Assembly: GCA_964596735.1 (NCBI GenBank)
Contig: CAZQVF010000003.1
Location: 42,611-106,610, forward strand
DNA length: 64,000 nucleotides
Direction of reading: 5' to 3'
Source of the DNA: an uncultured Gammaproteobacteria bacterium
GTDB taxonomy: Bacteria > Patescibacteriota > Patescibacteriia > UBA2591 > UBA6264
Position 1 is the first letter of the stretch. Every line of letters begins with the position of its first letter. Shown here one piece after another: positions 11,315-57,147 of this stretch. Below the pieces are notes generated by a model. That model had not been told where the DNA came from. It did no database searches and was given only the letters and a program-made list of their open reading frames with translations. A program made the position numbers and the translations under genes.

Positions 11315-11339
11315 CAAGGTTCTGCGAAGCAGGTTCTTA
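11315..11339. repeat. Intergenic motif copy 1: CAAGGTTCTGC-gaa-GCAGGTTCTTA. It overlaps the pheS stop codon.
   Basis: Near-identical to copies at 16942-16966 and, in reverse complement, at 57115-57147. Confidence 0.6.
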
Positions 11340-12359
11340 AAACTGTCTAATAAATCTTAAATCACCTGAATGAAGCAAGCGAATATCATCAATTTTATGC
11401 TTCATCATTATTAATCTATCCAAGCCCACGCCAAAAGCAAAACCAGTATATTTTCCATGAGCATAACCAGCGTGTTTAAAAACCTCGGGATGAATCATGC
11501 CTGAGCCAAGAATCTCTACCCAGCCGGTCTGGGAACAGACTGGACAGCCCTTTCCTCCACAATTTAAACAAGCGAAATCAATCTCAAAACTAGGCTCGGT
11601 AAAGGGAAAATAGCTTGGCCGTAATCTAATCTTCACCTTTGTTTTAAATAAGGCGTTTAAAAAGGTTTTTAAAGTATAAATTAAATTAGCAACACTGATT
11701 TCCTTGTCCACGGCAAAACCTTCTACTTGATAAATGGTATGTTCATGAGAAGCATCAGTTGCCTCATGGCGGAAACATTTACCAATGACACAAACCTTTA
11801 AAGGTGGTTTTCTTTTCTCCATTACCCTCACCTGCATCGGTGAAGTATGGGTTCTTAATAATTCACCTTTTTTCGATTTGATATAAAAGGTGTCCCACAT
11901 ATCCCGGGCCGGATGACCCTCAGGAATATTTAAAGCTTCAAAATTATAATAATCTGTTTCAAGTTCTGGTCCTTCTAAAACTTCAAAACCCATAGAAGAA
12001 AAAATATCAGCCACCATTTGTTTTCCCTGAGTTAAGGGATGTAAATGTCCAAACTCTATTTTCTTTCCCGGCAAAGTAAAATCCAAAGCCGCACCTTTGG
12101 CTTTGGAACCAGAACTAGATAACTCTCTTTTCTTATTATCAATGGCCTGCTCAATTTCTTGTTTAACCTGATTAGCCGAACTACCAACTCTTGGCTTCTC
12201 ATTATCGGGCAGGTCTTTTAAGCCGCGTAAAACCTTTGTTAATTCTCCGTTTTGCCGACCCAAATATTGGCGCCAGACCTTGTCCAAGTCTGCCCCATTT
12301 TTAACCTGATTAATTTGTTCTAAGGCCTTGCTTTTTAATTGTTTAATTTGCTCAATCAT
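11337..12359 (-). CDS. pheS: Phenylalanine--tRNA ligase alpha subunit.
   Basis: FRHEATDASHEHTIYQVEGF class II aaRS motifs. Confidence 0.9.
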   Translation of the reverse strand: MIEQIKQLKSKALEQINQVKNGADLDKVWRQYLGRQNGELTKVLRGLKDLPDNEKPRVGSSANQVKQEIEQAIDNKKRELSSSGSKAKGAALDFTLPGKKIEFGHLHPLTQGKQMVADIFSSMGFEVLEGPELETDYYNFEALNIPEGHPARDMWDTFYIKSKKGELLRTHTSPMQVRVMEKRKPPLKVCVIGKCFRHEATDASHEHTIYQVEGFAVDKEISVANLIYTLKTFLNALFKTKVKIRLRPSYFPFTEPSFEIDFACLNCGGKGCPVCSQTGWVEILGSGMIHPEVFKHAGYAHGKYTGFAFGVGLDRLIMMKHKIDDIRLLHSGDLRFIRQF

Positions 12360-12745
12360 GCCTTGTACTTTTTACGCGAAGAAAGAAAGAAAAATTCTAA
12401 AAACATTAAAAATAAGAGTAAAAACACACCATTCCACCATCTTAAAATACCTAGATTCTGCAACAAAAATAAACCGACAACTAAAAAACTTAACCAGATT
12501 CCCTGGCGGAAAGACGCTTCTACTTGTTTAAAAACCGGCCCCTTGTTTAAGCGAGTTCGGACAAGAAAGCCAATGATTGCTGCCGTTCCCACAATAGCCA
12601 AGAACAAACTAAAATAAAACAAGACAAAACCAATTAACCCTGTTTCTTTTGGATTAACAAAAAAAATAACAAAAACCCAGGCTAACCAACAAATAATGGT
12701 TAAAATGCTCATTAAATTAAGGTATTTTTTCAAAGTCATAAACAA
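12356..12745 (-). CDS. Hypothetical membrane protein, 129 aa, 3-4 TM.
   Basis: Hydrophobic ORF with a 4-nt overlap onto the pheS start. Confidence 0.4.
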   Translation of the reverse strand: MFMTLKKYLNLMSILTIICWLAWVFVIFFVNPKETGLIGFVLFYFSLFLAIVGTAAIIGFLVRTRLNKGPVFKQVEASFRQGIWLSFLVVGLFLLQNLGILRWWNGVFLLLFLMFLEFFFLSSRKKYKA

Positions 12746-12797
12746 AAGATAAATAATAAAGTAATTTAATTATAACATGTTTTAAAACTCTGGCAAT

Positions 12798-15700
12798 TTA
12801 TTCCTGCCGATACTGACAAATATTGTAAAAATCGCAAAACTTGCACATCCGACTAGGCTGAGCAGGAAAATCACCCTTTTTTATCTTCTCAATAGTCTTA
12901 ATAGCGTTTTCTTCTACTTTTTTCAAATCATCATCTTTGCCTAAAAAAGAAATCCTCTCCCCTGATTCTAAATAATAAAAAGTTAATTGGTGAACCGGCT
13001 TGTCAAAAGCCTCATGTAAATGCTGGGCGGCTAATTGATAAAGATACAATTGTTGCTTTTTTTCAAAACCAAGACTTGCTTTGTTCTGGCCGGTTTTGTA
13101 ATCAATAATTTCATATCCCTGATCTGTTTCATCAACCCGGTCAATCACCCCTCTAATTATGTATTTATCTAATTTAAAATTAAACTGCTTTTCCAAATAT
13201 TTCATATTTGGTTTATTCTGAACAAAATCATGATAAAACATTTTCAAAGCTTGTTTGCCTTTTCCCTTATACTTCTCCTGATGATCTTTACTGTCATACC
13301 AGTCCTCAATCCATGACTGCTCATAAATCTTTATCAAGTCATCAAAAGAAAGCTGGTTTTTTGATTGAGGTTTTTTCTCGCCAAATAAATCCCTTTGAAC
13401 CACATCTTTCTGCCCTCGCCACATCTGACAAAAACGATAAAGCGTATTATGCAGGCTTCTGCCAAAACTAAAAACATAACGGCCTTGACGAGGAATTCTT
13501 AAAATAAAACCAAACTTGTATTGTAAGGGACAGGTGTTAAAAGCCATAAACTGGGAAAAACTAAACCTTAAGGGCAGAGCTATGTCTGTCTTTTGTTTTT
13601 CTTCTTGTTTTACTAAGGGCTTGGTTAAAACATCTGTTTTTTCCTCAACTTTAATTGGCTTATCTTTTTTTACCAAACCTAATTCATATAAGAAACGAGA
13701 TGATTTTTTAAGAGTTTTTCCTCCATAATCTTCAGCCGAGGTCAGATAAAGACTGTGTTTGGCCCGGGTTAAAGCAACATAGAAAAGCCGTCTTTCTTCT
13801 TGCAAATGCACATCTCCCTGGGGAATAATTTCTTTAATCAAATCCACAGGTAATTCAATTGGCTCTTTGCGGTCAATACTGGGAAATCTCTTGTCTACTA
13901 AATTAACAATAAAAACATATTTAAATTCCAAGCCCTTGGCACTGTGAATGGTGCTGACTTTAACTGACTCAGGTCCCTGTTCTAATTCTGCATCAATACT
14001 GCCTGTATCTCCGGTACTAATCATTAAATCAATCAAACGAATAAATGCGCCAACTGATTTATCAAAATTAATTGCTTCAAAGTTCTCTATTTTTTTAAAA
14101 AACTGATTTAACCAAAAAACACTTTCGCTGTCCTCTTGATTAGATAAAATTTTTAAATAACCAGTGTCTTGTAAAAAAGCATAAACAACCTTGCTCACAT
14201 TTTCTGTTTTAGCCAGTTCAGTATGCTTATCAATCCAGGATAAAAATAGGTTTAATTGAGTGATTGTTTGCTTGGAAAGCTGAAAAATACTGGTCGCTTT
14301 TTGCATGGCTTCATAAACAGACCATGACTTTTTATTGGCAAAATTAATTAAATGAGACACTTCATTGCTGCTAATCTTTTTATTAAAAATTGGGGAGGTT
14401 AAAACCCGATAAATCGCTGTGCTTTCATGGTAATTATCAAGAAGTTTAAGATAAGCCAAAATATCTAAAATCACTGGTTTGGAAAACAAGCCAGACCGGA
14501 CTAAAAACTGATGAGAAACATTGGCTAGACGCAAAGCCTGAACAAAAAGTTCGGCCTGGTGATTGGCCCTGACTAAAATGGCAAAATCATTCCAACTCGC
14601 TTCTTCGTCTTTTTGCTTAAGCTCAATAATCTTTTTAATCACCGCCCTAGCTTCATCTTCCTGAGTTTTTAAGTGTAAATGCCTAATCTCCCCTTTGTCT
14701 TTTTTCTCTGCCTTTAATTTTTTAATAATATCTTTATCCTGAGCTTCTAGTCTTTCTGGATTGTTTAATTGAATAAAATTATAGGCTAAGTCTAAAATCT
14801 TTTGCTGGGAACGGTAATTCTTAATCAAGACCACCTGCTCTGTTTTGGGATAATCTTTTTTAAACTGCAAGACATTGTTATAAGAAGCGCCGCGAAATTT
14901 ATAAATAGAATTGTGAACAACTATTCCATTAGCCACAAAGTTATGACTTCGTTCTATTTCTAGATCATAAACTGTCAAATTTTTAATTTCTTCTTTAACT
15001 TCAATAACTTGGTCGTAAATCACCCCGTTCCTTTTAGTCGCCACTGGTAGATATAATCCTTGTAAAACATTGCTTGCCGGCATAATCAATGCTTTTTGAA
15101 AAACAATATTTGTTTTTCCAACAGTAAAACCGTTTTCTAAAATTCCTCCAGTCACCTTTTGCAATTTTTCAGCTATCTTGCCTATTTTTTTTATATCTTT
15201 ACTTTCTGCTTTAAAACGATAACCCTTTCTGGCTTTTGTTAAATTAAAACCGGCTTTTCTTAATTTATTAATTGTTCTCTTATCCGAAGTTTCAACAGAG
15301 GCTTGATGACGAATCAATGGATTTGTTAAAAATCCGTCTTTATCATATTTACTTCTATATCGCCTCTTGCACATATCAAAATTAATCTTGATTCTCAATT
15401 TACTACCTCTGTTTACTGCATCTAAAGAGTAATGGTGGGCACTTAAATCTATTTTTAAATCTCTAGCTAGTCTTCTTGCGCCATCTTCTACATTAATCTT
15501 TTTATATAATTTAATCATCCAATCACCTTTTATCATTACTCTGTCTCTCTCCTTAAAACAAGTCGTTTGTATGCCATACTTCAAAGAGTATAAGGTTTCA
15601 TAAAAACGAGCCTCTTCCTCACTTTGACAAGCTTTAATAGCTAGAATTTTATCTGCTGATCGTTCTAATTTTAACCTTACAGCTAAATTATTTGTTGTCC

Positions 15701-16844
15701 CTATTCGCCAACCTACATCATCTCGTCTCATTAAATAAACATAATAGTATTTTTTCTCTCTTGAAACACGGGGCGTAAAGCAAAACATTTTATGATTATC
15801 AGTAACTTGAACCCTGTATCCTTTCTTTGTTTTAAAAGTAAGCATTTTTGCTTTCTTTTTTCTTTTAAAGACTTTATTTACTTTTGAATAACTTAAATAA
15901 CCCTTGCCTACTGCTGTAGCAACTAAAGCGCCCTTTTTTATCTGATCTATCCTCTGAGTACCCCTTTTTGTTTGAACTAAAGTGTTACCAGGCAAACATT
16001 GGTCATCGTCAGAAACAGCGGTCATGTTATTCTTGGGCTGAGCCAGCATCTGCAGTAATTTATACTGGGCCCAGTTAGTGTCTTGAAACTCATCAACTAA
16101 GATATATTTAAACTGCTCTTGGTATTTTTTCAAAATCTGCGGTCTTTTTTCAAAAAGCTTTAAAGTGTAATTTATTAAATCACCAAAGTCCAAGGCATTG
16201 TTTTCTAAAAGCAATTGCTGATAAGTATGATAAGCATTGGCAATTTCTTTTAAACGGCTGGTTTCCTGGTCAAGCAATTCATCTGACATGCTCGTGTCTT
16301 TGTCTAGTTTTAAATTCTCCACATAATCTAAATATTCTTCCGGACTAATTAACTCATCTTTGGCCCGAGAAAAATGTTTAACCAGACTTTGGATAAACTT
16401 AGTCGGATTGCCCAAGGGCCGGTAATAATCCAAGTCAAACTTGTCAAAATTGTCCTGAACTAAAAAGCTTTGTTGGGCCTGATTTAATAATTTAAAATTC
16501 AGAGGCAGGCCAATATCTAAGGCATGCTGTTGCAAGATTCTTTCACAAAAGGAATGAAAAGTGGAAATCCATAAATCAACATAGCCATAAGGAAGCAACT
16601 TATCTATTCTCTCTTCCATTTCCTGAGCCGCTTTATCAGTAAAAGTTAAAGCTAAAACCTGGTCTGTCTTGACCAGATTACTCAAAATCAACCAAGCCAC
16701 CCGCCTGGTAATAACAGTTGTTTTGCCTGTACCGGCTCCGGCAATAATTAATAAAGGGCCTTGTCCATGAGTTACTGCTTTTTTTTGCTCAGAATTAAGC
16801 CCTTTTAAAATTTTATTACCTAATTCTTTTTCTGACATATGCAT
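12798..16844 (-). CDS. UvrD/PcrA-family helicase interrupted by an intein, with a C-terminal Cys-cluster nuclease-like domain.
   Basis: Walker A AGAGTGKTT and DEFQD motif II. An intein is inserted in motif III between DDDQ and SIYKFRGA. The C-terminus has Cys residues (CKFCDFYNIC) resembling the AddB/Cas4-type FeS nuclease cap. Confidence 0.85.
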   Translation of the reverse strand: MHMSEKELGNKILKGLNSEQKKAVTHGQGPLLIIAGAGTGKTTVITRRVAWLILSNLVKTDQVLALTFTDKAAQEMEERIDKLLPYGYVDLWISTFHSFCERILQQHALDIGLPLNFKLLNQAQQSFLVQDNFDKFDLDYYRPLGNPTKFIQSLVKHFSRAKDELISPEEYLDYVENLKLDKDTSMSDELLDQETSRLKEIANAYHTYQQLLLENNALDFGDLINYTLKLFEKRPQILKKYQEQFKYILVDEFQDTNWAQYKLLQMLAQPKNNMTAVSDDDQCLPGNTLVQTKRGTQRIDQIKKGALVATAVGKGYLSYSKVNKVFKRKKKAKMLTFKTKKGYRVQVTDNHKMFCFTPRVSREKKYYYVYLMRRDDVGWRIGTTNNLAVRLKLERSADKILAIKACQSEEEARFYETLYSLKYGIQTTCFKERDRVMIKGDWMIKLYKKINVEDGARRLARDLKIDLSAHHYSLDAVNRGSKLRIKINFDMCKRRYRSKYDKDGFLTNPLIRHQASVETSDKRTINKLRKAGFNLTKARKGYRFKAESKDIKKIGKIAEKLQKVTGGILENGFTVGKTNIVFQKALIMPASNVLQGLYLPVATKRNGVIYDQVIEVKEEIKNLTVYDLEIERSHNFVANGIVVHNSIYKFRGASYNNVLQFKKDYPKTEQVVLIKNYRSQQKILDLAYNFIQLNNPERLEAQDKDIIKKLKAEKKDKGEIRHLHLKTQEDEARAVIKKIIELKQKDEEASWNDFAILVRANHQAELFVQALRLANVSHQFLVRSGLFSKPVILDILAYLKLLDNYHESTAIYRVLTSPIFNKKISSNEVSHLINFANKKSWSVYEAMQKATSIFQLSKQTITQLNLFLSWIDKHTELAKTENVSKVVYAFLQDTGYLKILSNQEDSESVFWLNQFFKKIENFEAINFDKSVGAFIRLIDLMISTGDTGSIDAELEQGPESVKVSTIHSAKGLEFKYVFIVNLVDKRFPSIDRKEPIELPVDLIKEIIPQGDVHLQEERRLFYVALTRAKHSLYLTSAEDYGGKTLKKSSRFLYELGLVKKDKPIKVEEKTDVLTKPLVKQEEKQKTDIALPLRFSFSQFMAFNTCPLQYKFGFILRIPRQGRYVFSFGRSLHNTLYRFCQMWRGQKDVVQRDLFGEKKPQSKNQLSFDDLIKIYEQSWIEDWYDSKDHQEKYKGKGKQALKMFYHDFVQNKPNMKYLEKQFNFKLDKYIIRGVIDRVDETDQGYEIIDYKTGQNKASLGFEKKQQLYLYQLAAQHLHEAFDKPVHQLTFYYLESGERISFLGKDDDLKKVEENAIKTIEKIKKGDFPAQPSRMCKFCDFYNICQYRQE
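14910..15998 (-). mobile_element. Intein, about 363 aa, from Cys at aa 283 to His-Asn at aa 644-645, inside the helicase gene.
   Basis: N-terminal CLPGNTLV (block A), C-terminal HNFVANGIVVHN followed by the +1 Ser (block G). Its size implies an embedded homing endonuclease domain. Confidence 0.75.
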
Positions 16845-16941
16845 ATTTTAACATAAAAAAAAGAGCCTGACAAAGGGATAATTTTAAGAAAAATTATTAT
16901 AATTAAATTACTTTATTATCTATATAATAAATATTTAATTT

Positions 16942-16966
16942 CAAGGTTCTGCGTAGCAGGTTCTTA
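16942..16966. repeat. Intergenic motif copy 2: CAAGGTTCTGC-gta-GCAGGTTCTTA. It overlaps the tatD stop codon.
   Basis: Same motif as at 11315-11339. Confidence 0.6.
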
Positions 16967-17749
16967 TAATTTAAATAATTTTTTTGCATTTTTAGTGGTT
17001 TGATCAACCACTTGATCAAAGGTAAGATTTTTAATCTCAGAAATTCTCTGAGCTATAAAACGGACATAAACAGGCTCGTTTCTCTGTCCGCGATAAGGCT
17101 CGGGAGCTAAAAAAGGACAATCAGTTTCTAATAAAATCCTGTCTAAAGGACTTTTTTCCACCACTTGTAAAAGCCCTGGAGTAGCATTTTTAAACGTAAT
17201 CGGACCGGTAAAACCGATGTAAAGACCAAGATTTAAAAACTCTTGTCCAATAGACCAATCAGCAGAAAAACAATGAATCACTCCTTTGGGAATTTGTTTT
17301 AAATCTTTAATTATCTCTAATAATTCCAAATAAGCATTATTGGGATTATCCTTGTTCCCCCGGCAATGAAGAATAACTGGCAAATCATGTTCCTGAGCTA
17401 ATTTAATATGTTGCAAAAATACTTTTTTTTGCAAATCTCGACTATCTTGATGATGATAAAAATCCAAACCTGTTTCCCCTATGGCCTTAATCTGGTCTTT
17501 GTTTTCTTTGATTAATAAATCAAGTTTTTCTTTGTCAAAATCCTCATCTTTAACATGAATGGGATGAAGTCCAATGGCAGAAAAACAATTTTCAAATTCC
17601 TGACTTATTTTAACCGCCTTCTTGCTGGTTTCCAGGTTTGACCCAACACTAATTACGGCTTTTAGTCCTTGGTTAAAATTATGCTCAATTACCTGAGCAT
17701 AATCATTTTTAAATATTTTAAAATTTAAATGGGCATGGGTGTCAATCAT
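16964..17749 (-). CDS. tatD: TatD-family metal-dependent deoxyribonuclease / hydrolase.
   Basis: MIDTHAHLNF N-terminus and the TIM-barrel hydrolase pattern. Confidence 0.85.
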   Translation of the reverse strand: MIDTHAHLNFKIFKNDYAQVIEHNFNQGLKAVISVGSNLETSKKAVKISQEFENCFSAIGLHPIHVKDEDFDKEKLDLLIKENKDQIKAIGETGLDFYHHQDSRDLQKKVFLQHIKLAQEHDLPVILHCRGNKDNPNNAYLELLEIIKDLKQIPKGVIHCFSADWSIGQEFLNLGLYIGFTGPITFKNATPGLLQVVEKSPLDRILLETDCPFLAPEPYRGQRNEPVYVRFIAQRISEIKNLTFDQVVDQTTKNAKKLFKL

Positions 17750-29671: not shown

Positions 29672-29707
29672 CATATTATAAAATAATATCTAAATAAGTC
29701 AAGACTT

Positions 29708-31249
29708 ATGGCAACACTAACAAAGCGACAAAAACAAATTTACGACTATATTAAAAATTACATAGAAACAAAAAGTATCTCCCCCACTTTTGACGAAATA
29801 AGAAAACGTTTTAAACTTTCTGCGCTTTCAACTGTTCATCAACATATTGAAGCACTAATCACTAAAGGATTTTTAATAAAAAATAATAAACTTACTCGCG
29901 GGATAGAATTAATAAAAAAAGACGAATTGATTAAAGTTCCCTTTGTTGGGGCCATCACTGCCGGTCAACCAATCGAAGCTATTGAAAACAGAGAAGAATC
30001 AATTGCCATTTCAAAAAATAAACTTCCGCGTTCGGGAGAATTTTTTGCACTCAAAGTCATGGGAGATAGTATGATTGACGAAAATATTAACGACGGGGAT
30101 GTCGTCTTAATAAAAAAACAATGCGTTGCTAGTAATGGAGAAAAAATTGTAGCACTAATTGATAATCGTGAAGCAACACTCAAATCTTTCTATAAAGAAA
30201 GGGATCAAATTCGTTTACAGCCAGCAAACAAAAAACTTAAACCAATTATAATTAAAGATGGTGAAAAAGAAATAATAATACAAGGGATAGTAATAGATAT
30301 AATTAAGAATATAAATCCCGAAAAGAAGATAGAAAAAGAAAAAGAAAAAAAAATTAAAGCTAAAAGAAAAAACAAATTACCTCTAAATAAAATTATATTA
30401 GGAGACACTGTAAAAGAATTAAAAAAACTACCAAGTGAGAGTTGCGACATTATAATAGCTGATCCCCCTTATAATATCGGTAAAAATTTTGGAAATAATA
30501 TTGATAAAAGAGAATTAAGTGAATATATAGAATGGTCTAAAGAATGGATTAATGAATGTATAAGATTAATGAAACCAACAGCTACAATGTTTCTTTATGG
30601 ATTTAGCGAAATTTTAGCTCATATTTCAGTAGAAATACCAATAAATAAAAGATGGGTTATCTGGCATTATACTAACAAAAATGTAGCTTCGCTGAACTTC
30701 TGGCAAAGAAGTCATGAGTCAATTATCTGTGCATGGAAAGATAAAAGAATATTTAATAGAGATGAAATAAGGGAACCATATACCATTGGATTTTTAAATG
30801 GAGCAGCTGGAAAAATCAGAAAAGGGACAAAAGGAAGATTTAGTAATTCTGGGAAAACTACAATTTATAAGGCTCATGAAAAGGGGGCTTTGCCAAGAGA
30901 TGTAATAAAAATTCCCGCTCTGGCCGGAGGAGCTGGTATGAATGAAAGATGGTTCTTATGTAAAACATGTGATGAAGTTTTTGGACCAAGAAAATTGAAA
31001 GAGCACAAAGATCATAAAATAATTAAACACCCTACCCAAAAACCCCTTGAACTATCAAAAAAAATAATAAAGTCTTGTATGCCTAAAAAATATGGGGTAG
31101 TATTGGTTCCATTTGTTGGTAGCGGTTCTGAATGTGTAGCTGCCAAAGAACTCGGACAAAATTATGTTGGTTTTGAAATTAATCCAGAATATATAAAAAT
31201 TGCTCAAAAATTTTTGAGCAACACAAAATTCAAACAAAAATTATTTTAA
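29708..31249 (+). CDS. LexA/S24 autopeptidase repressor module fused to an N6-adenine / N4-cytosine DNA methyltransferase (PF01555-like).
   Basis: N-terminal wHTH, Ala-Gly cleavage site ITAGQP, Ser in MGDSM and Lys in TLKSF (S24 dyad). A Lys-rich linker follows. Then DPPYN (motif IV), HPTQKP and C-terminal VPFVGSGSE (motif I). Confidence 0.7.
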   Translation: MATLTKRQKQIYDYIKNYIETKSISPTFDEIRKRFKLSALSTVHQHIEALITKGFLIKNNKLTRGIELIKKDELIKVPFVGAITAGQPIEAIENREESIAISKNKLPRSGEFFALKVMGDSMIDENINDGDVVLIKKQCVASNGEKIVALIDNREATLKSFYKERDQIRLQPANKKLKPIIIKDGEKEIIIQGIVIDIIKNINPEKKIEKEKEKKIKAKRKNKLPLNKIILGDTVKELKKLPSESCDIIIADPPYNIGKNFGNNIDKRELSEYIEWSKEWINECIRLMKPTATMFLYGFSEILAHISVEIPINKRWVIWHYTNKNVASLNFWQRSHESIICAWKDKRIFNRDEIREPYTIGFLNGAAGKIRKGTKGRFSNSGKTTIYKAHEKGALPRDVIKIPALAGGAGMNERWFLCKTCDEVFGPRKLKEHKDHKIIKHPTQKPLELSKKIIKSCMPKKYGVVLVPFVGSGSECVAAKELGQNYVGFEINPEYIKIAQKFLSNTKFKQKLF

Positions 31250-31936
31250 TAATTTATCAATTTCTTCTTTCTTTTTTTCAAAAATAAAAGGAGTAAAAAC
31301 TACAAATCCATTTGGCAATCTTTTCAATTCTTTGTTTTGAATGAATCTTAAATAGGGTAATTTATATTCTCCATTCAATTTTTTGGGGTTTGTAAAATAA
31401 TCTTCGCTCGGAACCTCATATTTAATATCAATAAATTCGCCTTCAATTTTATTTTTTGTCTCCTTAGCTTTCCTAACTTCCCTGCTAAACGACTTTTTCT
31501 TTACCTGATAATTTAATATTTTATTTTTATAATTTACTTGAAAATCAGCTCCTCGATGATCTAGTTCTGCTGACATCTTTACTGTATTTTCTCCAAAAAT
31601 AAACTCTGCAACATAACCAGCGTGTATCTGTGTAATAATACTAGCCCAAGTTCTGTATATCCTGGCTGGAAGACCTTTATAAAAACATGTTTCACACATT
31701 GTAATTTTCTCTCTAAATTTTTCAATCTTCTCTTTATAATTATTTAAATATCTTTTACAAAATCTATCAAAATCTAAAAATTCTTTTTCATCCCAATATA
31801 CTTTATAAAGCAATTCAATGGCTTGTATTTCTTTTGGCATATCCATTTCAACAATTTTAATAGGTTTATATTTTTTGCGATAATTATTAAGATTGATTGA
31901 TTCTAAAAATTCCTCAAAATTTTTTACTAAATACAT
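31241..31936 (-). CDS. Candidate type II restriction endonuclease partner of the MTase.
   Basis: Convergent with the MTase, 3' ends overlapping by 9 bp. No clear family motif is recognisable; the call rests on gene context. Confidence 0.35.
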   Translation of the reverse strand: MYLVKNFEEFLESINLNNYRKKYKPIKIVEMDMPKEIQAIELLYKVYWDEKEFLDFDRFCKRYLNNYKEKIEKFREKITMCETCFYKGLPARIYRTWASIITQIHAGYVAEFIFGENTVKMSAELDHRGADFQVNYKNKILNYQVKKKSFSREVRKAKETKNKIEGEFIDIKYEVPSEDYFTNPKKLNGEYKLPYLRFIQNKELKRLPNGFVVFTPFIFEKKKEEIDKLLK

Positions 31937-32091
31937 ATAAAATAAATTATTTTTATAAATCGCGGTTATCTTAACATGTCGTTAAAATCTATAATTAAAA
32001 ATATAATTACTCTTCATATAAATTCTAGAACAAAAATTTAATAAGTCAAGTTTTAAAAAACAAAAAGTTTTTTTAGTATTAATGTCTAAGT

Positions 32092-32904
32092 ATGAAAAAG
32101 AAAAAATCAACCATAGATCCAAGTAGAAAAAGATTGTTGAAAATTCTGGATGCAGAACAAAAAAGATATTCTGAAATTTTTAATAGTGCTTCCTTTAAGC
32201 TTTTTACTAAACAATCAAATAAGATAAAAAAAAACGTTCAAAAAGTTTTATCTTCTTTTGAACCAGCTTCCACGCTGGTAAAAAATAACCAAAAAATAAT
32301 GGAATCAATGGTTAATTCTTTTAAGAATTTACCCTCTGCACCAAGTAATATAAATATAAAAATACCCATATCCGTACATCAAAAAAAAGTTTACTCCGAA
32401 TCGGAATTAGATTCAATTATCGAAAAAGTAATAAGAGAGACCATTAAAAAAACTATGCCTCCAAAAAATAGATTTCCCTACGAACTACCCCAAGACTTTC
32501 CTTGGGCTAGAATTACCATTAAATTCATAGATGGTCATAATATAAAAATTGTTGCTGAAGATTATATATATAATGCCGATTTCAAAGAATTAAATTTTCA
32601 AAACTCAAAAAACAAAAAACCAAACGCTCAGTGGGAATTACTCAAATCTTTATCAGAGAATAATGGAAAAATTTCTTGGGATATCAGCTTTGCTAGCTCA
32701 AAAATAAAAAAGAGAAAACAATTATTAAGCCAAGGATTAAAAAAATATTTTCAAATTAAATCCGATCCCTTCTTCTCTTATAGGAAAGAAAAAGGATATA
32801 AAATAAAAATAAATTTAGCGCCTGAATCTACATCAATAAACGATGTTCTTCCACAAGATGAATTAGGGATAGAAGAAGCTTATAATGAACAAACTTATAC
32901 ATAA
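32092..32904 (+). CDS. Hypothetical protein, 270 aa.
   Basis: ORF only; Lys-rich. Confidence 0.35.
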   Translation: MKKKKSTIDPSRKRLLKILDAEQKRYSEIFNSASFKLFTKQSNKIKKNVQKVLSSFEPASTLVKNNQKIMESMVNSFKNLPSAPSNINIKIPISVHQKKVYSESELDSIIEKVIRETIKKTMPPKNRFPYELPQDFPWARITIKFIDGHNIKIVAEDYIYNADFKELNFQNSKNKKPNAQWELLKSLSENNGKISWDISFASSKIKKRKQLLSQGLKKYFQIKSDPFFSYRKEKGYKIKINLAPESTSINDVLPQDELGIEEAYNEQTYT

Positions 32905-33031
32905 ATAATGTGGTGAATTCACCGAAACAATATATTTAATAAAATTGCCTAAAATTAGGCAATTTTTTATTTTTAACGAATTTTCACCATAAAGGGTAGA
33001 GAATCAGTTTTAATAATTAACCATAAAAATC

Positions 33032-33415
33032 ATGAAAAAAGAAAAATCAAAAATTATTCAAACCACTCCGTCTCACTCCGATTATCAATTTGTAATCAAG
33101 GGGATAAAGCACGTCCCCGAATTTCTTAGCTTTGTTAATTGGTTTGCTACTCCAGGACAATTTAAAAAGCTAAAAAATCAGAAAGATTTCGCGAAATCAA
33201 TCGGAGTATGCCAGGATACCCTTACGGACTGGAAAAAGCATTCCCAATTTTGGCCATTAGTATTCGCATCTATTTCAGAATGGATAAAAGAAAAAATCCC
33301 CGACGCAATAGGAGGACTCTATGAAAGAATACTCAAAGACGGAAACCCAAAGGTGTTTGAAACATTTTTACGCCTTGGAGGAATTAATAATCAAGGCATT
33401 AAAAAAACAAAATAA
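33032..33415 (+). CDS. Terminase small subunit-like HTH protein.
   Basis: HTH segment SIGVCQDTLTDWKK. Size and position upstream of the terminase large subunit. Confidence 0.35.
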   Translation: MKKEKSKIIQTTPSHSDYQFVIKGIKHVPEFLSFVNWFATPGQFKKLKNQKDFAKSIGVCQDTLTDWKKHSQFWPLVFASISEWIKEKIPDAIGGLYERILKDGNPKVFETFLRLGGINNQGIKKTK

Positions 33416-35211: not shown

Positions 35212-35215
35212 TTAT

Positions 35216-36670
35216 ATGAACATTAATACAAATATAATGGATCAAACTTTGATCAAAAAAATTATTAACGACCGCAAAGTTCGTGTTGCTATTGCGCGTC
35301 AAAGTCACCTTTGGTTCTTTAATATCTATTTTTCTAATTACGTCATAAACGAAACTGCTCCTTTTCAGAAAGAAATGTTTAATTTAACCGAAAATGAGTT
35401 AAATAAACTCGCAGTTATTGTTGCATTTAGAGGTTCAGCCAAGTCAACAATTATGACTATGTCATATCCAATATGGTCAATTCTTGGCAACCAGCAGAAA
35501 AAATTTGTACTGATTATCAGCCAAACACAAGAACAGGCTAGACTACATCTTAAAAATCTAAAAAACGAACTTGAAAGAAATAAGCTCTTGAAAACTGATC
35601 TCGGACCATTTGAAGAAAACGATGACTGGAGAAGCTACTCACTTGTTATACCAAAGTACAACGCTAGAATTACAGCGGCTTCAATTGAGCAAAGTATACG
35701 CGGCATCAGACACGGCGAACACAGGCCCGATCTCATAATTTGTGATGATATAGAAGATCTTAATTCAGTTAAAACACGTGAAAGTAGAGACAAAACTCAT
35801 CAATGGCTTAGGGGAGATGTAATTCCTGCCGGAGATAAAAACACAAAAATTGTCTTAGTGGGAAATCTCCTTCATGAGGATTCTGTATTAATGAGACTAA
35901 AACAAGATATTGATGAAGGAAGGCTTGCCGGAATATACAAACGATATCCATTACTTGACGAAAATAATCAAAGTTTATGGCCCGGAAAATATAATACAGT
36001 AAAAGATATAGAAATATTGAAACATACCATTGGCGATGAAATTGCTTGGCAAAGAGAATTTCTTTTACGCATCGTTCCTAATACAAATCGTGTTGTTCAG
36101 TCAGATTGGATCAATTATTATGAACATTTATCTGAAAATAAAAATGAACTACTTTGCGTCCTTACTGGCATTGATCTCGCTATAGCCGAGAAAGATAGCT
36201 CTGATTATACCTCAATGGTCTCCGCTAGAGTCTATATTCATAATAATAAACTGTGTATATATATCCTTCCCAATCCAGTAAACGAACGCATGGACTTTGC
36301 CAAGCAATTAGAAAAAGCGAAATTTCTTTCTAAAAGCCTTGGTGATGGATATCCAACTCGACTTTTAGTTGAAGACGTAGGCTATCAAAAAGTATTTATC
36401 CAGCAATTACAAAAAGATGGATTCCCCGCTGAATCATTTCACTTAGAAGGTCGAGATAAACGATCACGACTTATGTCAACTACTCATCTTATTCAATTAG
36501 GGAATGTTCTTTTCCCTAAACATGGAGCAGAAAAATTAATTGAGCAACTTGTAGGTTTTGGAGTTGAAAAACATGATGATTTAGTTGATGCTTTTACCAT
36601 GATTATCCTCCAGATTTTGAAGGAACGCCCCTACGAAATTGACGTAAAAACTTTAGTTTTTTCTGTATAA
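35216..36670 (+). CDS. Phage terminase large subunit. The track ORF starts at 35150; an internal ATG at about 35216 is the likely start.
   Basis: Walker A-like AFRGSAKST, Walker B DLIICDD and a C-terminal RNaseH-like nuclease region. Confidence 0.6.
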   Translation: MNINTNIMDQTLIKKIINDRKVRVAIARQSHLWFFNIYFSNYVINETAPFQKEMFNLTENELNKLAVIVAFRGSAKSTIMTMSYPIWSILGNQQKKFVLIISQTQEQARLHLKNLKNELERNKLLKTDLGPFEENDDWRSYSLVIPKYNARITAASIEQSIRGIRHGEHRPDLIICDDIEDLNSVKTRESRDKTHQWLRGDVIPAGDKNTKIVLVGNLLHEDSVLMRLKQDIDEGRLAGIYKRYPLLDENNQSLWPGKYNTVKDIEILKHTIGDEIAWQREFLLRIVPNTNRVVQSDWINYYEHLSENKNELLCVLTGIDLAIAEKDSSDYTSMVSARVYIHNNKLCIYILPNPVNERMDFAKQLEKAKFLSKSLGDGYPTRLLVEDVGYQKVFIQQLQKDGFPAESFHLEGRDKRSRLMSTTHLIQLGNVLFPKHGAEKLIEQLVGFGVEKHDDLVDAFTMIILQILKERPYEIDVKTLVFSV

Positions 36671-36763
36671 ATTTTGGAAAAATCTAAGGGTTTTTGGGAT
36701 AAAAAGTTATCAACAGTTTGGGCTGGATATATGTTGTTTTTGCGGTATCCTTGGTCTCACTAA

Positions 36764-38140
36764 ATGAATAATTATAAAACTATGGATTACCAAAAAACAA
36801 CATTAAATCAAGGTTTAAGTGCGACCAGTCCCCTATCAACAGAAGAAGCGCCTGTTAAATATTGTCTTTACGCGAGAAAATCAACTGAAGACGATGAAAA
36901 ACAGGCGCTTTCCATTGATTCCCAAATAAAAGAAATGGAAGAATTAGCAGAAAAAATAGGATTAGAAGTAGTGGAAACCAAAAAAGAATCTCATTCTGCT
37001 AAAAAATCGGGTGACCGTCCTATTTTTAATAAACTTATTGATGGAATCAAACAGGGATTGTATCAAGGAATCCTCACTTGGGCCCCGGATAGATTGAGTA
37101 GGAATGCTGGAGACTTAGGAATATTGGTAGATTTAATAGATTATGGACATTTGAGAGAAATAAGAACATACGGACAGAATTTTTCTAATAAACCAAATGA
37201 TAAATTCCTTCTTATGATCCTATGTAGTCAGGCAAAACTAGAAAATGACTGCAAAAGCGAAAACGTTAAAAGGGGCCTCAGGGCTAAATGCGCCATGGGA
37301 TGGCGACCCGGACTTCCCCCCTTGGGATATCTTCATGATAAATATGCAGACAAGGGAAAAAGAAAAGTACTTCTTGATCCGAAAAGAGCTCCGATAATAA
37401 AACAAATGTTTGAAAAGGTGGCTTATGAAAGCATGAGAGGAAGACAATTATTCCACTGGTTGAACTATAAGATAAAATTCAGAAGTCGGGCCGGTAAAAG
37501 AATTACCCTTAGCACTATTTACCAAATACTTAGTGAACATTTCTATTATGGAAAATTTGAATATCCTAAAGGTAGTAGTAATTGGTATAAAGGTGGATAT
37601 GAACCAATAATTACAGAAGAGCTATTTAATCAAGTCAGGGCTAAATTATTAGTCTCGCCAAGAAGACATCCGGGGACCAATGAATATGACTTTACTAAAT
37701 TATTTACTTGCGGAAACTGTGGATCGGGAATCACTGCTGAAGAAAAATTTAAAAAGATAAGCGACGGCACTCGCCGTCGCTATGTTTATTATCACTGTAG
37801 TAGATTTAAAAATGAAAAATGTAATGAAAAATATATTAGAGAAGAAGAATTACTAAAACAATTATTGGAAATCATAGATAAAATTGATGTAGATGAAATA
37901 AAATTAGAAACTAAAATGGAAAGAGAAATTATGAGATACCGCAAATTTTATTACGGAGTACTTAATCAAGATGGAAAAATCGAAAAAAGGCCCATTGATG
38001 TAGATATAAGAAATTATGCTAAATATGTTCTCATAGAAGGATCTAGAGATGAAAAAAGAGAAATATTAAATTGTCTAAGAAGCAAATTAGAGCTAAAAGA
38101 TAAAACGCTTTATTTAAAAATTACAGGAAAAATAATATAG
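36764..38140 (+). CDS. Large serine recombinase (phage integrase type).
   Basis: N-terminal resolvase catalytic domain YARKSTEDDEKQALSIDSQ, recombinase domain, Zn ribbon CGNCGSG...HCSRF and a coiled coil. Confidence 0.8.
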   Translation: MNNYKTMDYQKTTLNQGLSATSPLSTEEAPVKYCLYARKSTEDDEKQALSIDSQIKEMEELAEKIGLEVVETKKESHSAKKSGDRPIFNKLIDGIKQGLYQGILTWAPDRLSRNAGDLGILVDLIDYGHLREIRTYGQNFSNKPNDKFLLMILCSQAKLENDCKSENVKRGLRAKCAMGWRPGLPPLGYLHDKYADKGKRKVLLDPKRAPIIKQMFEKVAYESMRGRQLFHWLNYKIKFRSRAGKRITLSTIYQILSEHFYYGKFEYPKGSSNWYKGGYEPIITEELFNQVRAKLLVSPRRHPGTNEYDFTKLFTCGNCGSGITAEEKFKKISDGTRRRYVYYHCSRFKNEKCNEKYIREEELLKQLLEIIDKIDVDEIKLETKMEREIMRYRKFYYGVLNQDGKIEKRPIDVDIRNYAKYVLIEGSRDEKREILNCLRSKLELKDKTLYLKITGKII

Positions 38141-38193
38141 ATATTGATTTTTATAAAAAAGCTCTTTATAATTAAAATACAAGTTAATATTGC

Positions 38194-38330
38194 TGTACGA
38201 CCTTATAATGCCCTCATCAGGGGCTGGTCGTACAGCATCCATACTTCGGTATGGTAAACCTTGGTGGGGGCTTTGTAGTTAGGTCAATTACCAAGGATAA
38301 ATAAAGGTCATCTTTAATCAAATCTAATAA
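38194..38330. repeat. Structured GC-rich segment with three stem-loops directly after the serine recombinase gene. Candidate att site or ncRNA.
   Basis: 11-bp inverted repeat gctgtacgacc/ggtcgtacagc (38194-38204 and 38234-38244) enclosing ccct-catc-aggg. Also ccatac-ttcg-gtatgg and ccttggt...accaagg. Confidence 0.3.
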
Positions 38331-38338
38331 AAATAACT

Positions 38339-38905
38339 ATGAATATAAATGAAGAAAAAGAAAAAAATGAAAATTCACCAAATCGGGAACAGATTGAACA
38401 AGAGGAAAAAATACGAGCAGAAGCACGAGCTAAGGCAGAAAAGGAGATTAAAGAAAAAGAAAAAATAAAAGAAGCAAACAAACAAGCCATTGGATGTCTA
38501 ACTGCTTTAGTTATTATCGTTTTAGTCGTTATCTTGTTTGTTCTCCCTGATAATGGAGAAGAAAAAAATCAGAAAATAGTTGGGTCTCCACCAATAAAAA
38601 TTTCAGCTGTCCAATTAAATAAAGAATATGATGCAAACAAAGTTGCAGCTGACCAGAAATATAAAGACAAGATAGTAGAAATGTCTGGAATTATAGACGA
38701 CATCGGGAAAACCATTTTAGATAAACCCTACGTTATCATCAAAGGAAAAGAATATTCCCCATTTGTTATCCAATGTATGTTCGATAATGAATATAAAAAT
38801 AAATTAGCTAACCTATCCAAAGAGCAATCTATTACTGTTAAATGTCAAGTATCTAGTGAATTGATTGGTTATATTATATTAAGAGATTGTGTAATTGTTA
38901 AATAA
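38339..38905 (+). CDS. Hypothetical membrane-anchored protein.
   Basis: Charged N-terminus, one TM helix and an extracytoplasmic domain. Confidence 0.35.
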   Translation: MNINEEKEKNENSPNREQIEQEEKIRAEARAKAEKEIKEKEKIKEANKQAIGCLTALVIIVLVVILFVLPDNGEEKNQKIVGSPPIKISAVQLNKEYDANKVAADQKYKDKIVEMSGIIDDIGKTILDKPYVIIKGKEYSPFVIQCMFDNEYKNKLANLSKEQSITVKCQVSSELIGYIILRDCVIVK

Positions 38906-38989
38906 AAAATTATATTTTTTTAATTATATGCAAAACAAAGAGAAGAAAATCAAATTTTATTTAACTTTTTAACTAATAAAAATAAAACT

Positions 38990-39559
38990 ATGAAAAAATT
39001 AAAATTCTGGGTAATTTCATTGATAATAATCGTTATCTTGGGTTGTCTATATATATGGGCAAAAAATGTAAAGAATGAAACAATAGAAAATATAGATAAA
39101 GATGTGGCTAAAATACAAGAGATGGAAAAAGATCAACAAGAACTGAAAGAAATGTGGGAAGATAATAAAAAGGAAATAAACGAACAGTTTATTGAACAAT
39201 CAATATTAGAGCCGAAAATGAAAGAATTAGAACAGAAGCCACAACAGGAGGAAGAAAAACCCCAATCCAATCAACCAATAATCGAACAAACATCGTCAGA
39301 TCCTGAACCTGAACCAGAAACAAAGACCGATAGAAACAAGATGATAGAAATTTTTAAAGCAGACGCCCTAGCAAAATGGGGTGACGATTACCAAATGGTA
39401 AATTATGAAGTAGGAGAACAAACTGAAGCATACGACTGGATTGTTATACAAACTAAATACCCAGAAATCATGACAAGAGCAAAACAAAAATGGGGCAATG
39501 ATTATGGAATGGTGAAATATGAATATGAAGAACAGGTTGAGGCTTACGAATCTTTATAA
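38990..39559 (+). CDS. Hypothetical membrane-anchored protein with an internal tandem repeat.
   Basis: N-terminal TM helix and acidic linker. A duplicated ~30-aa module reads AKWGDDYQMVNYEVGEQTEAYDWI and QKWGNDYGMVKYEYEEQVEAYESL. Confidence 0.35.
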   Translation: MKKLKFWVISLIIIVILGCLYIWAKNVKNETIENIDKDVAKIQEMEKDQQELKEMWEDNKKEINEQFIEQSILEPKMKELEQKPQQEEEKPQSNQPIIEQTSSDPEPEPETKTDRNKMIEIFKADALAKWGDDYQMVNYEVGEQTEAYDWIVIQTKYPEIMTRAKQKWGNDYGMVKYEYEEQVEAYESL

Positions 39560-39704
39560 AAAATATTCTTATAGAAGACATTCATAGTTACAGTGGTAAT
39601 AGGAAGTAAATAAAAATCTTGCCAATGACAGAAAAACATAAAGGGTTGCCTTTATGTTTTTTTATACTTAACCGATGGAGCTCGGTCGGTTTCACAAGAA
39701 TTGT

Positions 39705-39778
39705 TGGCTCGGGGGTAGGGATTCGAACCCCAATTTACTGGACCAAAACCAGCAGTCCTGCCATTAGACGACCCCCGA
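39705..39778 (-). tRNA. tRNA-Gln(UUG).
   Basis: Cloverleaf with a U1-A72 pair, G73 discriminator, anticodon loop TTTTGGT, T-arm TGGGG-TTCGAAT-CCCTA and encoded CCA. Confidence 0.7.
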
Positions 39779-53206: not shown

Positions 53207-53217
53207 TTATAGTAAAT

Positions 53218-55004: not shown

Positions 55005-55054
55005 CAATATAATTAGTCAGTGGCAAAGTAAAAAACCATAAACAAATTAAACAA

Positions 55055-57094
55055 ATGGATTTAATTATTGTTGAATCACCAACCAAGGCAAAAACTATTA
55101 CTCGCTTTTTGAGCGATGATTTTTTAGTTGAATCATGTAATGGTCATATCCGAGACCTGCCTAGAGGAAAATTAGGAGTAGATCCTGAAAAAAACTTTGA
55201 GACCCAATATGTTATTCCTACCACTAAAAGAAAAATAGTAAATAAATTAAAAAAATTAGGCGAGAAAGCAGATAAAATATATCTGGCTAGTGATGAAGAT
55301 CGCGAAGGAGAAGCCATTGCTTGGCATTTAGACCATATTTTAGAATCTAAAAACACTAAACGCATTAGCTTTCATGAAATTACTCAAGAAGCAATTAAAC
55401 AGGCTTTAAAAACTCCGCGACAGATTGATATAAACTTAGTTAATTCTCAACAATCTCGTCGCATTCTTGACCGCTTAGTTGGATATAAACTATCTCCCTT
55501 ATTATGGAAAAAGCTAGTTAAAGGGCTTTCGGCCGGACGAGTCCAATCACCAGCTGTTAGGTTGATTGTGGAAAGAGAAAGAGAAATTGAAAAATTCAAA
55601 CCTCAAGAATACTGGTCTATTGAAGCAGAATTAAAAGACAAAAAAGAAACTTTTTGGGCAAAATTAGTTAAAAAAGGGGGTAAAACACTTGATAAATTAG
55701 AAATTAAGACAGAAAAACAAGTCCAAGAAATTATTAAAGATTTAGAAAAGGCGGAATACAAAATAATTGATATTAGAAAAAAAGAAATTAATAAATCCCC
55801 TCGCCCACCCTTTATCACCAGTACTCTTCAACAACAAGCCAGTAGAAATCTTAGCTTTTCTGTAAAACAGACAATGGTGATTGCTCAACAACTTTATGAA
55901 GGTGTTTCTTTAAATAAAAAAGGTGCAGCTGGTTTAATCACTTATATGCGCACAGATTCTTTAAATCTTTCAGAGAAATTTTTAAAAGAAAGTCAATCCT
56001 TTATTAAAAAAGTATACGGTGATAAATATTTAGAAAAACGTGTTTACAAGACAAAATCAAAAACGGCTCAAGAGGCTCATGAGGCCATTCGTCCTACTGA
56101 TTGTCAAAATACTCCAGAAAAAATGGCCAAATATTTAAACAAAAACCAATTAAAACTATATGATTTAATTTGGCGTCGAGCAATGGCCTCACAGATGAGT
56201 AAGCAGATTCTTGACTCAACCGCTGTTGATATTGAAGCAAAACAATATCTTTTCCGAGCCAATGGTTTAAACATAAAATTTGATGGGTGGTTAAAAATTT
56301 ATCCTGAAAAACAAAAAGAAAACTATTTACCAGATTTAAAAATTAATCAGATTTTAGAATTAAAACAGTTAAAGCCTGATCAACATTTTACAGAACCACC
56401 TCCCCGCTACAGTGAGGCTAGTTTGGTTAAAATTTTAGAAGAATATGGAATTGGCCGGCCATCAACCTATGCTCCAATTATTACCACGATTCAAACTAGA
56501 AATTACGTACTAAAAGAACAAAAACGATTTAAGCCAACTGAGATAGGTATTTTAGTTAATGACCTTTTAGTAAAACATTTTTTTGATATTGTCGATTATA
56601 AGTTTACTGCTCAGCTAGAAGATAATTTAGATGAAATTGCTCAAGGAAAAGAAGATTATCTAAAAATGCTTAATAATTTTTATCAACCTTTTATAAAAAA
56701 TTTACAAATGAAAGAAGAAGAAATTGAGAAAAAATTTACTGATGAACAAACAGATGAAAAATGTCCTAAATGTAATGAACCATTAGTTATAAAAATGGGG
56801 CGTTTTGGAAAATTCTTAGCCTGCACTGGATTTCCTAAATGTAGACACACAAAGTCTTTAACAGACTCATCAGGTAATAATCATGAAAAAATTGATATTC
56901 CTTGTCCTAAGTGTGACGGAGAAATCGTGAAAAAAAGAACTAGAAAGGGAAAATTCTTTTATGGCTGTTCAAACTGGCCCAAATGTGACTTTGCCGTATG
57001 GGATGAACCAACCGATGAAAAGTGCCCTAAGTGTAAAAGCATCATGGTTAAAAAAGGAGACCAAATAAAATGCAGTAATAAAGAGTGTAAATAA
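55055..57094 (+). CDS. topA: DNA topoisomerase I with C-terminal zinc ribbons.
   Basis: TOPRIM N-terminus MDLIIVESPTKAKTI, the catalytic Tyr region and three C-terminal CxxC...CxxC ribbons. Confidence 0.9.
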   Translation: MDLIIVESPTKAKTITRFLSDDFLVESCNGHIRDLPRGKLGVDPEKNFETQYVIPTTKRKIVNKLKKLGEKADKIYLASDEDREGEAIAWHLDHILESKNTKRISFHEITQEAIKQALKTPRQIDINLVNSQQSRRILDRLVGYKLSPLLWKKLVKGLSAGRVQSPAVRLIVEREREIEKFKPQEYWSIEAELKDKKETFWAKLVKKGGKTLDKLEIKTEKQVQEIIKDLEKAEYKIIDIRKKEINKSPRPPFITSTLQQQASRNLSFSVKQTMVIAQQLYEGVSLNKKGAAGLITYMRTDSLNLSEKFLKESQSFIKKVYGDKYLEKRVYKTKSKTAQEAHEAIRPTDCQNTPEKMAKYLNKNQLKLYDLIWRRAMASQMSKQILDSTAVDIEAKQYLFRANGLNIKFDGWLKIYPEKQKENYLPDLKINQILELKQLKPDQHFTEPPPRYSEASLVKILEEYGIGRPSTYAPIITTIQTRNYVLKEQKRFKPTEIGILVNDLLVKHFFDIVDYKFTAQLEDNLDEIAQGKEDYLKMLNNFYQPFIKNLQMKEEEIEKKFTDEQTDEKCPKCNEPLVIKMGRFGKFLACTGFPKCRHTKSLTDSSGNNHEKIDIPCPKCDGEIVKKRTRKGKFFYGCSNWPKCDFAVWDEPTDEKCPKCKSIMVKKGDQIKCSNKECK

Positions 57095-57114
57095 GGCAAA
57101 TTTCTGTTAAAATA

Positions 57115-57147
57115 TAAGAACCTGCTCACTGCGTTTGCAGAACCTTG
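57115..57147. repeat. Intergenic motif copy 3 in reverse orientation: TAAGAACCTGC-tcactgcgttt-GCAGAACCTTG.
   Basis: Reverse complement of the 11315 and 16942 copies with an 11-nt spacer. Lies 20 nt after the topA stop. Confidence 0.55.

Follow-up and report, generated by a model that had tools for sequence, protein, structure and literature searches.

Background

Small palindromic mobile repeats are a well-known kind of genomic element. Repetitive extragenic palindromic (REP) sequences and the REPINs built from them are mobilised by RAYT, a transposase of the HUH Y1 type whose gene is typically flanked by REPs. Rickettsia palindromic elements (RPE) are selfish palindromic repeats that, as reportedly described by Ogata et al. 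in 2000, occupy intergenic DNA and also lie in frame within protein genes. We know of no transposase for the BOX elements of Streptococcus or for the MIRUs of Mycobacterium. Insertion sequences (IS) of the IS200/IS605 family, from which the PATE elements derive, are not known to make a direct repeat when they insert, and for IS608-type elements a lagging-strand model applies. Patescibacteria have tiny, streamlined genomes that are usually thought to be poor in selfish DNA. Here, we describe a short hairpin-forming motif that occurs in a 64-kb stretch of contig CAZQVF010000003.1 (hereafter the window), and we compare it with these systems. The window has a GC content of 33%, belongs to a Patescibacteria-type genome and has also been assembled in several JGI and ENA metagenomes.

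We conclude, with a probability of roughly 0.7, that the motif marks the conserved core shared by a family of small hairpin elements, mobile but non-autonomous, which are of the same kind as REP, RPE or MITE (miniature inverted-repeat transposable element) sequences and are moved in trans. On the best reading of the evidence, the element does not serve as a terminator, as a processing signal or as a transcription-factor site. It is unusual in its hairpin-chain architecture, in its targeting of TA(A) and stop codons, in its insertions in frame and within rRNA in streamlined genomes, and in its presence in two very distant lineages. A literature text search with the motif strings returned only unrelated primers and miRNAs, and a literature search for MITE or REP elements in Patescibacteria returned nothing relevant.

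Results

Three exact copies of the core motif are present in the window, at the positions and on the strands reported in an initial annotation of this DNA: 11315-11339 on the minus strand (caaggttctgc-gaa-gcaggttctta), 16942-16966 on the minus strand (caaggttctgc-gta-gcaggttctta) and 57115-57147 on the plus strand (TAAGAACCTGC-N11-GCAGAACCTTG). The gapped pattern AAGAACCTGC-N(1-20)-GCAGAACCTT matched three times in the window versus 0.00 matches expected from 100 shuffles, and a looser core pattern applied to all 64 kb recovered the same three copies and no additional core. With filters off, a covariance model scored the three copies at 36.8-41.8 bits, while every other match in the window stayed at or below 14 bits. 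Open reading frame (ORF) coordinates bear out the gene context that the annotation had described. The first three nucleotides of the motif are the TAA of pheS (11337-11339; 340-aa ORF) and of tatD (16964-16966; 261-aa ORF), the third copy lies 20 nt downstream of the topA stop (57092-57094), and all three copies share one polarity relative to their flanking genes. The AGAACCT direct repeat noted at the same time is real, but its supposed spacing of one helical turn is not: the distance is 14 or 22 nt in the window and is not fixed.

The 25-33 nt reported are only the core: a second hairpin follows and brings the units to 57, 67 and 76 nt. The complete unit has the layout TA/AGAACC-[hairpin P1]-GAACCUUG-[hairpin P2]...TA(A), which in gene sense reads (A)UA/AGAAC-[C-U-G-C...G-C-A-G]-AAC-[C-U-U-G...U-A-A]. 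It is a chain of hairpins, each closed by C-U...A-G, with AAC linkers between them, and P2 follows the GAACCTTG box and terminates in TAA. In the predicted folds the 5' UAAG may instead pair with CUUG, enclosing a symmetric AAC/AAC internal loop.

Copy 1 (11280..11339, minus strand) places an inserted segment of 57 nt (11280-11336) between pheS (11337-12359, minus) and pheT (8897-11278, minus). Next to the pheS stop it comprises the GAACC box, P1 (CTGC-TTC-GCAG, 11322-11332), the GAACCTTG box (11315-11322) and P2 (TTGATTC...GAATTAA, 11280-11317). Copy 2 (16897..16966, minus strand) is an inserted unit of 67 nt between tatD (16964-17749, minus) and a UvrD-like helicase gene (12798-16844, minus); starting from the tatD stop, it has P1 (CTGC-TAC-GCAG) at 16949-16959, the GAACCTTG box at 16942-16949 and a long AT-rich P2 at 16897-16944. 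Copy 3 (57115..57193, plus strand), with an inserted unit of 76 nt, lies between topA (55055-57094, plus) and tRNA-Leu (57197-57282, plus) and ends 3 nt before the latter. Its parts are TAA at 57115-57117, the GAACC box at 57118-57122, P1 with an 11-nt interior at 57122-57140, the GAACCTTG box at 57140-57147 and P2, ending in TATAA, at 57145-57193. The AT-rich P2 is common to copies 2 and 3, both of which fold far better than shuffled sequences (z ~ -4). To the three core copies originally counted, a fourth, partial one has to be added: a relic at ~12746-12797, in the opposite orientation (plus strand), which keeps only the 3' half of an AT-rich P2 and is missing the GAACC core. The relic contains the 17-mer AAGTAATTTAATTATAA (12759-12775), identical to part of copy 2.

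Orthologous loci of relatives were retrieved via PheS and TopA homologues, and alignment with the window revealed four junctions at which the element is present in some genomes and absent from others. The pheS-pheT junction of relative L245 (PheS 94% identical) is empty, a single nucleotide separating the genes (...CAGTTTTAA-T-ATGAAA); to this sequence the window adds 57 nt (GAACC...GAATTAA) after the TAA, with TTAA on both sides. The junction is also empty in L246 and L247 (75% identical). In L244 (96% identical), an unrelated palindromic insert of 285 nt (L244 9024-9308) occupies the same TAA/ATG point, which suggests either an insertion hot spot at the copy 1 site or a second element family. 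The tatD-uvrD junction carries a unit in the window, L244 and L245 and none in L246; P1 of the L244 unit is compensatorily changed to TGGC-TTC-GCCA, and L245 has at least two tandem units. The site between topA and tRNA-Leu is empty in L248 (TopA 96% identical), L251 (88%) and L250 (79%), and in L249 (94%) two tandem units sit precisely on the topA TAA, which is 20 nt upstream of where the window has its insertion. Downstream of uvrD, L245 has a complete reverse-orientation element where the window keeps only the relic. As judged from these alignments, units have evidently been inserted or lost at individual sites between close relatives.

The family extends well beyond these genomes. One pattern scan each, with 20 specified bases, returned at least 120 metagenome stretches and at least 117 genome stretches. 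Long-spacer matches that were unable to form the hairpin lay in coding sequence and were counted as chance; the remaining matches with full architecture amount to at least ~250 non-redundant copies at >230 loci, with a conservation of CTGC/GCAG that is partly by construction of the exact 20-nt search pattern. By the labels of the metagenome-assembled genome records, the hosts among the matches listed are mainly Patescibacteria (Nealsonbacteria, Saccharibacteria, Woesebacteria, Shapirobacteria, Paceibacteria and Minisyncoccales) and Clostridia (Christensenellaceae, Acutalibacteraceae, Ruminococcaceae and other Eubacteriales). A scan of viral contigs gave eight matches, all of them chance occurrences inside coding sequence; the plasmid collection gave 0 matches and the phage collection noise only. 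In Rfam, the window produced tRNAs only at the gathering threshold, and permissive and gathering searches of 32 loci returned no family matching the element.

Across the family, the P1 spacer measures 3-14 nt or more, and its sequence and length vary while pairing is kept. All four combinations A-T, C-G, G-C and T-A occur at the first inner pair, and 0 of 5000 shuffles matched the observed pairing. This covariation was measured on unmodelled inner pairs; pair counts from the covariance-model alignment are uninformative, as those pairs were fixed by the search pattern. Further copies in the same loci have altogether different P1 stems (TCGCC/GGCGA, TGTCGCC/GGCGACA and CCCCGGC/GCCGGGG). Since P1 varies in both length and sequence yet still pairs, a duplex-DNA site with fixed half-site spacing is ruled out, and with it the candidate role of a protein-binding site whose half-sites lie one turn apart, the proposed spacer being a covarying hairpin of very variable length. 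Head-to-tail arrays are frequent, with a period of 36-75 nt and in some cases heterogeneous units, and Clostridial loci contain extra hairpins with ATATCAC or ATATAAC linkers around the element.

Each insertion is flanked by a direct repeat of 2-5 nt with the common core TA(A); TTAA, TAAG, AAATA and (A)TAA were recorded. Among the matches listed, the 5' flank has T at position -1 in 207 of 234 copies and A at -2 in 184 of 234, and P2 is closed by TTG..TAA in 81 copies versus 8 with the better-pairing TTG..CAA. Because the former closure is ~10 times commoner than the latter, the terminal TAA is conserved for a reason other than pairing. In a wider sample, the upstream gene ends on the TAA of the motif in 17 of 100 co-oriented cases. 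Landing on TA(A) regenerates TAA and leaves the gene unharmed, and for this reason copies sit on stop codons. The best explanation for their position is a TA(A) target combined with selection against disrupted ORFs, and not a function at mRNA 3' ends. The new TA(A) at the end of each unit would in turn let heterogeneous head-to-tail arrays build up.

Copies are also found within genes. A complete element lies at ~840-910 of locus L048, in a variable region of a 23S rRNA gene fragment and antisense to the rRNA, with GCAA loops on both hairpins in rRNA sense. Other short hairpin insertions are present in the same 23S rRNA, such as TCCGCCTTTGGCGGA, and recur beside elements elsewhere. About 3-4% of the copies in the sample listed are in frame inside long ORFs that have Pfam domains and are thus real genes, including those for a class I tRNA synthetase (ValRS), DNA polymerase I (PolA), a class A penicillin-binding protein (PBP1), RelA/SpoT, an amine oxidase and a PMT_2 glycosyltransferase. 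The Pfam domains flank or span the inserts in PolA, PBP, RelA/SpoT, the amine oxidase and PMT_2. In ValRS, alignment reveals a clean insert of 18 aa (ISSAARKKVLPSEARQVL, 54 nt) between the catalytic and anticodon-binding domains that is missing in six homologues of 76-86% identity.

The two strands of the element differ. Both orientations are common, and the element is co-directional with its flanking genes about twice as often as it is antisense to them; 17 copies are in divergent contexts versus 7 in convergent ones. Interior mismatches of P1 are pyrimidine-pyrimidine (Y.Y) on the gene-sense strand in 85 of 85 cases, and correspond to tandem G.A / A.G (or A.A) on the opposite strand. Loops on the strand antisense to genes are GNA, ANA or GNNA, and there the AAC/AAC internal loop becomes G.U, U.U and U.G, giving a continuous helix followed by a U-rich tail. 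Folding with RNA parameters makes the antisense strand the more stable one in 193 of 240 units, and with DNA parameters the difference in energy between the strands is small. Taken together, mismatch composition, loop composition and RNA-parameter energies, on which the strand argument rests, would fit selection for the folding of one DNA strand. Copies whose terminator-like strand falls in mRNA sense may be selected against, which, along with co-oriented insertion at TAA stops, could account for the 2:1 orientation bias.

Discussion

The initial annotation as a whole is partly supported. The first alternative to be weighed against a mobile element, which takes in the RNA 3'-end processing signal proposed there, is a cis-acting signal at RNA 3' ends that is kept for gene control: a terminator of non-canonical form, a site of RNase processing or a hairpin that stabilises mRNA. 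REP-type hairpins can stabilise mRNA or attenuate transcription, the window copies all lie in gene polarity and start at or near stop codons, the hairpins covary, and the antisense core, a GC stem with a U-rich tail, is flagged by a simple terminator scan. We nevertheless regard such a signal as distinctly unlikely, since the element is missing from the same junctions in relatives whose flanking proteins are 94-96% identical, orientation is biased by only ~2:1 with divergent contexts outnumbering convergent ones, copies lie inside a 23S rRNA gene and in frame in coding genes, and heterogeneous tandem arrays are hard to account for. That the motif is not a canonical terminator in gene sense had been correctly seen: P1 is followed there by GAACCUUG, with no U-tract. 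An intrinsic (Rho-independent) terminator was accordingly rejected, the U-rich tail being antisense only and the element missing in relatives. It could also be argued that the two AGAACCT half-sites form a double-stranded DNA operator or a site for a nucleoid protein beside the -35 region of the downstream gene. The direct repeat is there, and the motif ends in CCTTGAAA or CCTTGATT, a -35-like hexamer at which one promoter-like match starts (copy 2). Such an operator is highly improbable, however, as half-site spacing runs from 14 to 25 nt or more across what is a covarying hairpin, copies 1 and 3 have no consistent promoter prediction, the genes downstream are unrelated to one another and the sites are insertion-polymorphic. 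Two simpler versions were discarded as well: a promoter with the motif end (TTGAAA or TTGATT) as its -35 element, for which predictions were inconsistent across the three copies, and a transcription-factor direct repeat, whose spacing is variable and hairpin-forming.

A structured non-coding RNA, or an RNA module that binds a protein in the manner of Gut-1 (for instance by titrating an RNA-binding protein) and has spread by duplication, is also unlikely. It draws on the shared architecture of Gut-1 (RF01706), which scores above threshold directly beside the element in loci L028 and L129, on the classification of Gut-1 as a likely RNA by its authors (PMC2864571), and on the two-fold symmetric AGAACCU/AGAACCU internal loop, which would suit a dimeric binder. 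Against it, singletons sit at unrelated junctions and inside genes in both orientations, the copies lack a promoter and a terminator of their own, the strand that folds better is the one antisense to neighbouring genes in ~2/3 of cases, and insertion polymorphism with flanking direct repeats indicates mobile DNA. A 3'-end signal, a Gut-1-like RNA and an operator all leave the polymorphism, both orientations, the differences in spacing and the copies within coding and rRNA genes less well explained than a mobile element does. Among mobile elements, a classical cut-and-paste MITE that descends from a DDE transposon of the IS630/Tc1 or IS5 type and duplicates a TA or TNA target site would account for a small, mostly intergenic and polymorphic element, and a uniform TA (or TAA) duplication suits all comparisons of empty and filled sites. 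We consider it improbable, given that inspection of the sequences and of the empty/filled comparisons revealed terminal inverted repeats in no register of the ends, that subfamily ends (type-A, type-B and Clostridial P2) are unrelated around a conserved internal core, the reverse of a MITE defined by its terminal inverted repeats, and that ORF clustering found no DDE transposase recurring near copies. Integron attC sites have paired core sites, R'' RYYYAAC and R' GTTRRRY, with one site per gene cassette; the element was rejected as an attC because its AAGAAC has no GTTCTT partner on the same strand and because it occurs as tandem 36-nt units and as singletons between housekeeping genes. Inspection also led us to reject CRISPR, a type III toxin-antitoxin system (ToxI-like 36-nt repeats), a ribozyme, boxA and a tRNA T-arm, for which defining features were missing or the copies are polymorphic singletons.

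For the mobile element, the mechanism that we propose is as follows. Units insert at TA(A), including TAA stops, and regenerate the stop harmlessly, as the comparisons of relatives show; they would most likely be recognised as folded single-stranded DNA; and they would be moved by a putative enzyme that is specific for this structure and has its gene elsewhere. It may be of the HUH/Y1 type, to which RAYT and the TnpA of IS200/IS605 belong. An enzyme acting on single-stranded DNA is favoured because terminal inverted repeats are absent and the hairpin features are strand-specific, and its assignment to the HUH/Y1 type, which rests on these sequence features, is made with low to moderate confidence. 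Several observations weigh against mobility in this form. The window and the retrieved loci yielded no transposase and no other enzyme that might mobilise the element; no HUH gene is present in the window, and an IS200 TnpA probe had 0 matches in the retrieved loci. Should genes run in the direction of replication, the strand that folds better would in most cases serve as leading-strand template, which misfits the IS608-type model. Hairpin covariation cannot separate RNA from single-stranded DNA. Finally, mobility is deduced by comparing relatives, the sample was gathered with an exact pattern and is biased, and orientations depend on crude ORF calls.

All-against-all clustering of 1,707 ORFs near copies identified no recurring neighbour gene beyond housekeeping families, and no RAYT was found in the window or in ~1.6 Mb of retrieved loci by probe and clustering. 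Small GIY-YIG ORFs are present in ~9 of ~240 element loci, with no clear adjacency to copies established. Stand-alone GIY-YIG ORFs (77-86 aa) and a LAGLIDADG ORF also lie at junctions of relatives that are empty in the window (L244 11773-12006; L250 4873-5133; L249 1737-2495).

In Patescibacteria the element colonises short intergenic spacers, where it separates closely joined genes (pheS-TAA-T-ATG-pheT, for example); it also enters a 23S rRNA gene and extends essential enzymes by extra peptides. That a second, very distant lineage has the same 7-nt box, again around hairpins that vary freely, points to a specific enzyme that acts in trans. For annotation, the units are a risk: they may pass for regulatory motifs, terminators or small RNAs, break assemblies and create apparent indels in proteins. 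More tentatively, hairpin chains including Gut-1 and the ATATCAC- or ATATAAC-linked Clostridial arrays might together make up a new superfamily of transposable DNA that lacks terminal inverted repeats. Its members would be recognised in folded, single-stranded form by an enzyme that Patescibacteria and gut Clostridia share or have exchanged, and would routinely remodel essential genes in frame and insert at stop codons. We regard this wider proposal as possible but doubtful.

Other features of the window

At 11208-11237, within the 5' coding part of the minus-strand gene pheT, the plus strand has a terminator-like hairpin and T-run; this hairpin would terminate antisense transcription into pheS. 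The UvrD/PcrA-like helicase (12798-16844, 1348 aa) contains an intein (Hint and Intein_splicing hits). Its counterparts in L244 and L246 are intein-free, at 983-985 aa, and the intein is therefore polymorphic too. A pair of the diversity-generating retroelement type consists of a bAvd-like protein of 117 aa (2397-2750, minus strand) beside a reverse transcriptase of 349 aa (RVT_1; 2751-3800, plus strand), as assigned from precomputed Pfam hits on an identical contig. The region ~29700-39600 is a probable integrated island that ends near tRNA-Gln (39705-39778). It encodes a LexA-like/N6_N4 methyltransferase fusion, a TaqI-like restriction enzyme, a ParB_N-methyltransferase and a large serine recombinase (36764-38140), and its GC and AT skews are opposite in sign to those of its surroundings. 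At 58294-58442, two tRNA-Met (CAT) genes are adjacent without a spacer, an arrangement kept in L248-L250.

Comparison with known systems

The element shares target-site duplication and insertion polymorphism with MITEs, as the repeats with a TA(A) core and the four polymorphic junctions demonstrate, and differs from them in that its ends, set by the empty/filled comparisons, have no terminal inverted repeats. This absence is shared with the IS200/IS605-derived PATEs, as are hairpins near the ends, a short specific insertion sequence and a structural bias towards one strand. On the other side, no TnpA/TnpB partner or full-length parent IS was found for it in the window and retrieved loci, its insertions are flanked by a short direct repeat, and its predicted active strand misfits the lagging-strand bias expected of IS200/IS605. 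BOX and MIRU elements resemble it in being modular, in varying in tandem copy number and in lying within operons close to stops and starts. Their sequences are unrelated, however, and MIRUs are direct repeats with small coupled ORFs, while BOX elements have fixed A, B and C modules.

Of the three roles suggested by the initial annotation, a small REP-like repeat comes closest to what is a dispersed hairpin repeat with insertion polymorphism. Like the REP, BIME and REPIN families, the element consists of short imperfect palindromes with a conserved short tag beside a variable stem, is mostly intergenic and clustered, often just after stops and between co-transcribed genes, and has neither terminal inverted repeats nor coding capacity. 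Short palindromes of the REP size class (20-40 nt), P1 and P2, recur at >230 loci, mostly in intergenic DNA. The tag of REPs is GTAG or CGTC (PMC3733652). Neither is found in the element, whose conserved flanks are AAGAACC, GAACCTTG and TA(A). Its units are arranged head to tail, not as inverted REPIN doublets, copies also lie inside ORFs and rRNA, and a single core is common to two very distant lineages, whereas a REP family is as a rule confined to one species or genus.

In-frame insertion in conserved protein genes is the feature shared with the RPEs: the element likewise adds peptides to essential proteins (18 aa in ValRS, and others in PolA, PBP and RelA/SpoT). The two have no sequence relationship and occur in different hosts, the units measure ~36-76 nt versus ~100-150 nt for RPEs, and the element is a modular chain of hairpins with GAACC linkers.

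Gut-1 has been described only from human gut metagenomes and was interpreted as a non-coding RNA (PMC2864571). It resembles the element in combining variable covarying hairpins with a short conserved linker, which is UGAAAU in Gut-1 versus AAC/GAACC here, and it adjoins the element in Clostridial arrays, where the two can share the loop sequence TCGCTTTGCTC. The element did not match the Gut-1 covariance model at gathering score; above-threshold hits lie beside it and not on it, in both orientations (L028 72-144 and 210-284, 57.6 bits; L129 153-229, 51 bits). Gut-1 may thus be part of a DNA repeat array and not a stand-alone small RNA, which would offer a DNA-level explanation for this orphan "RNA" family.

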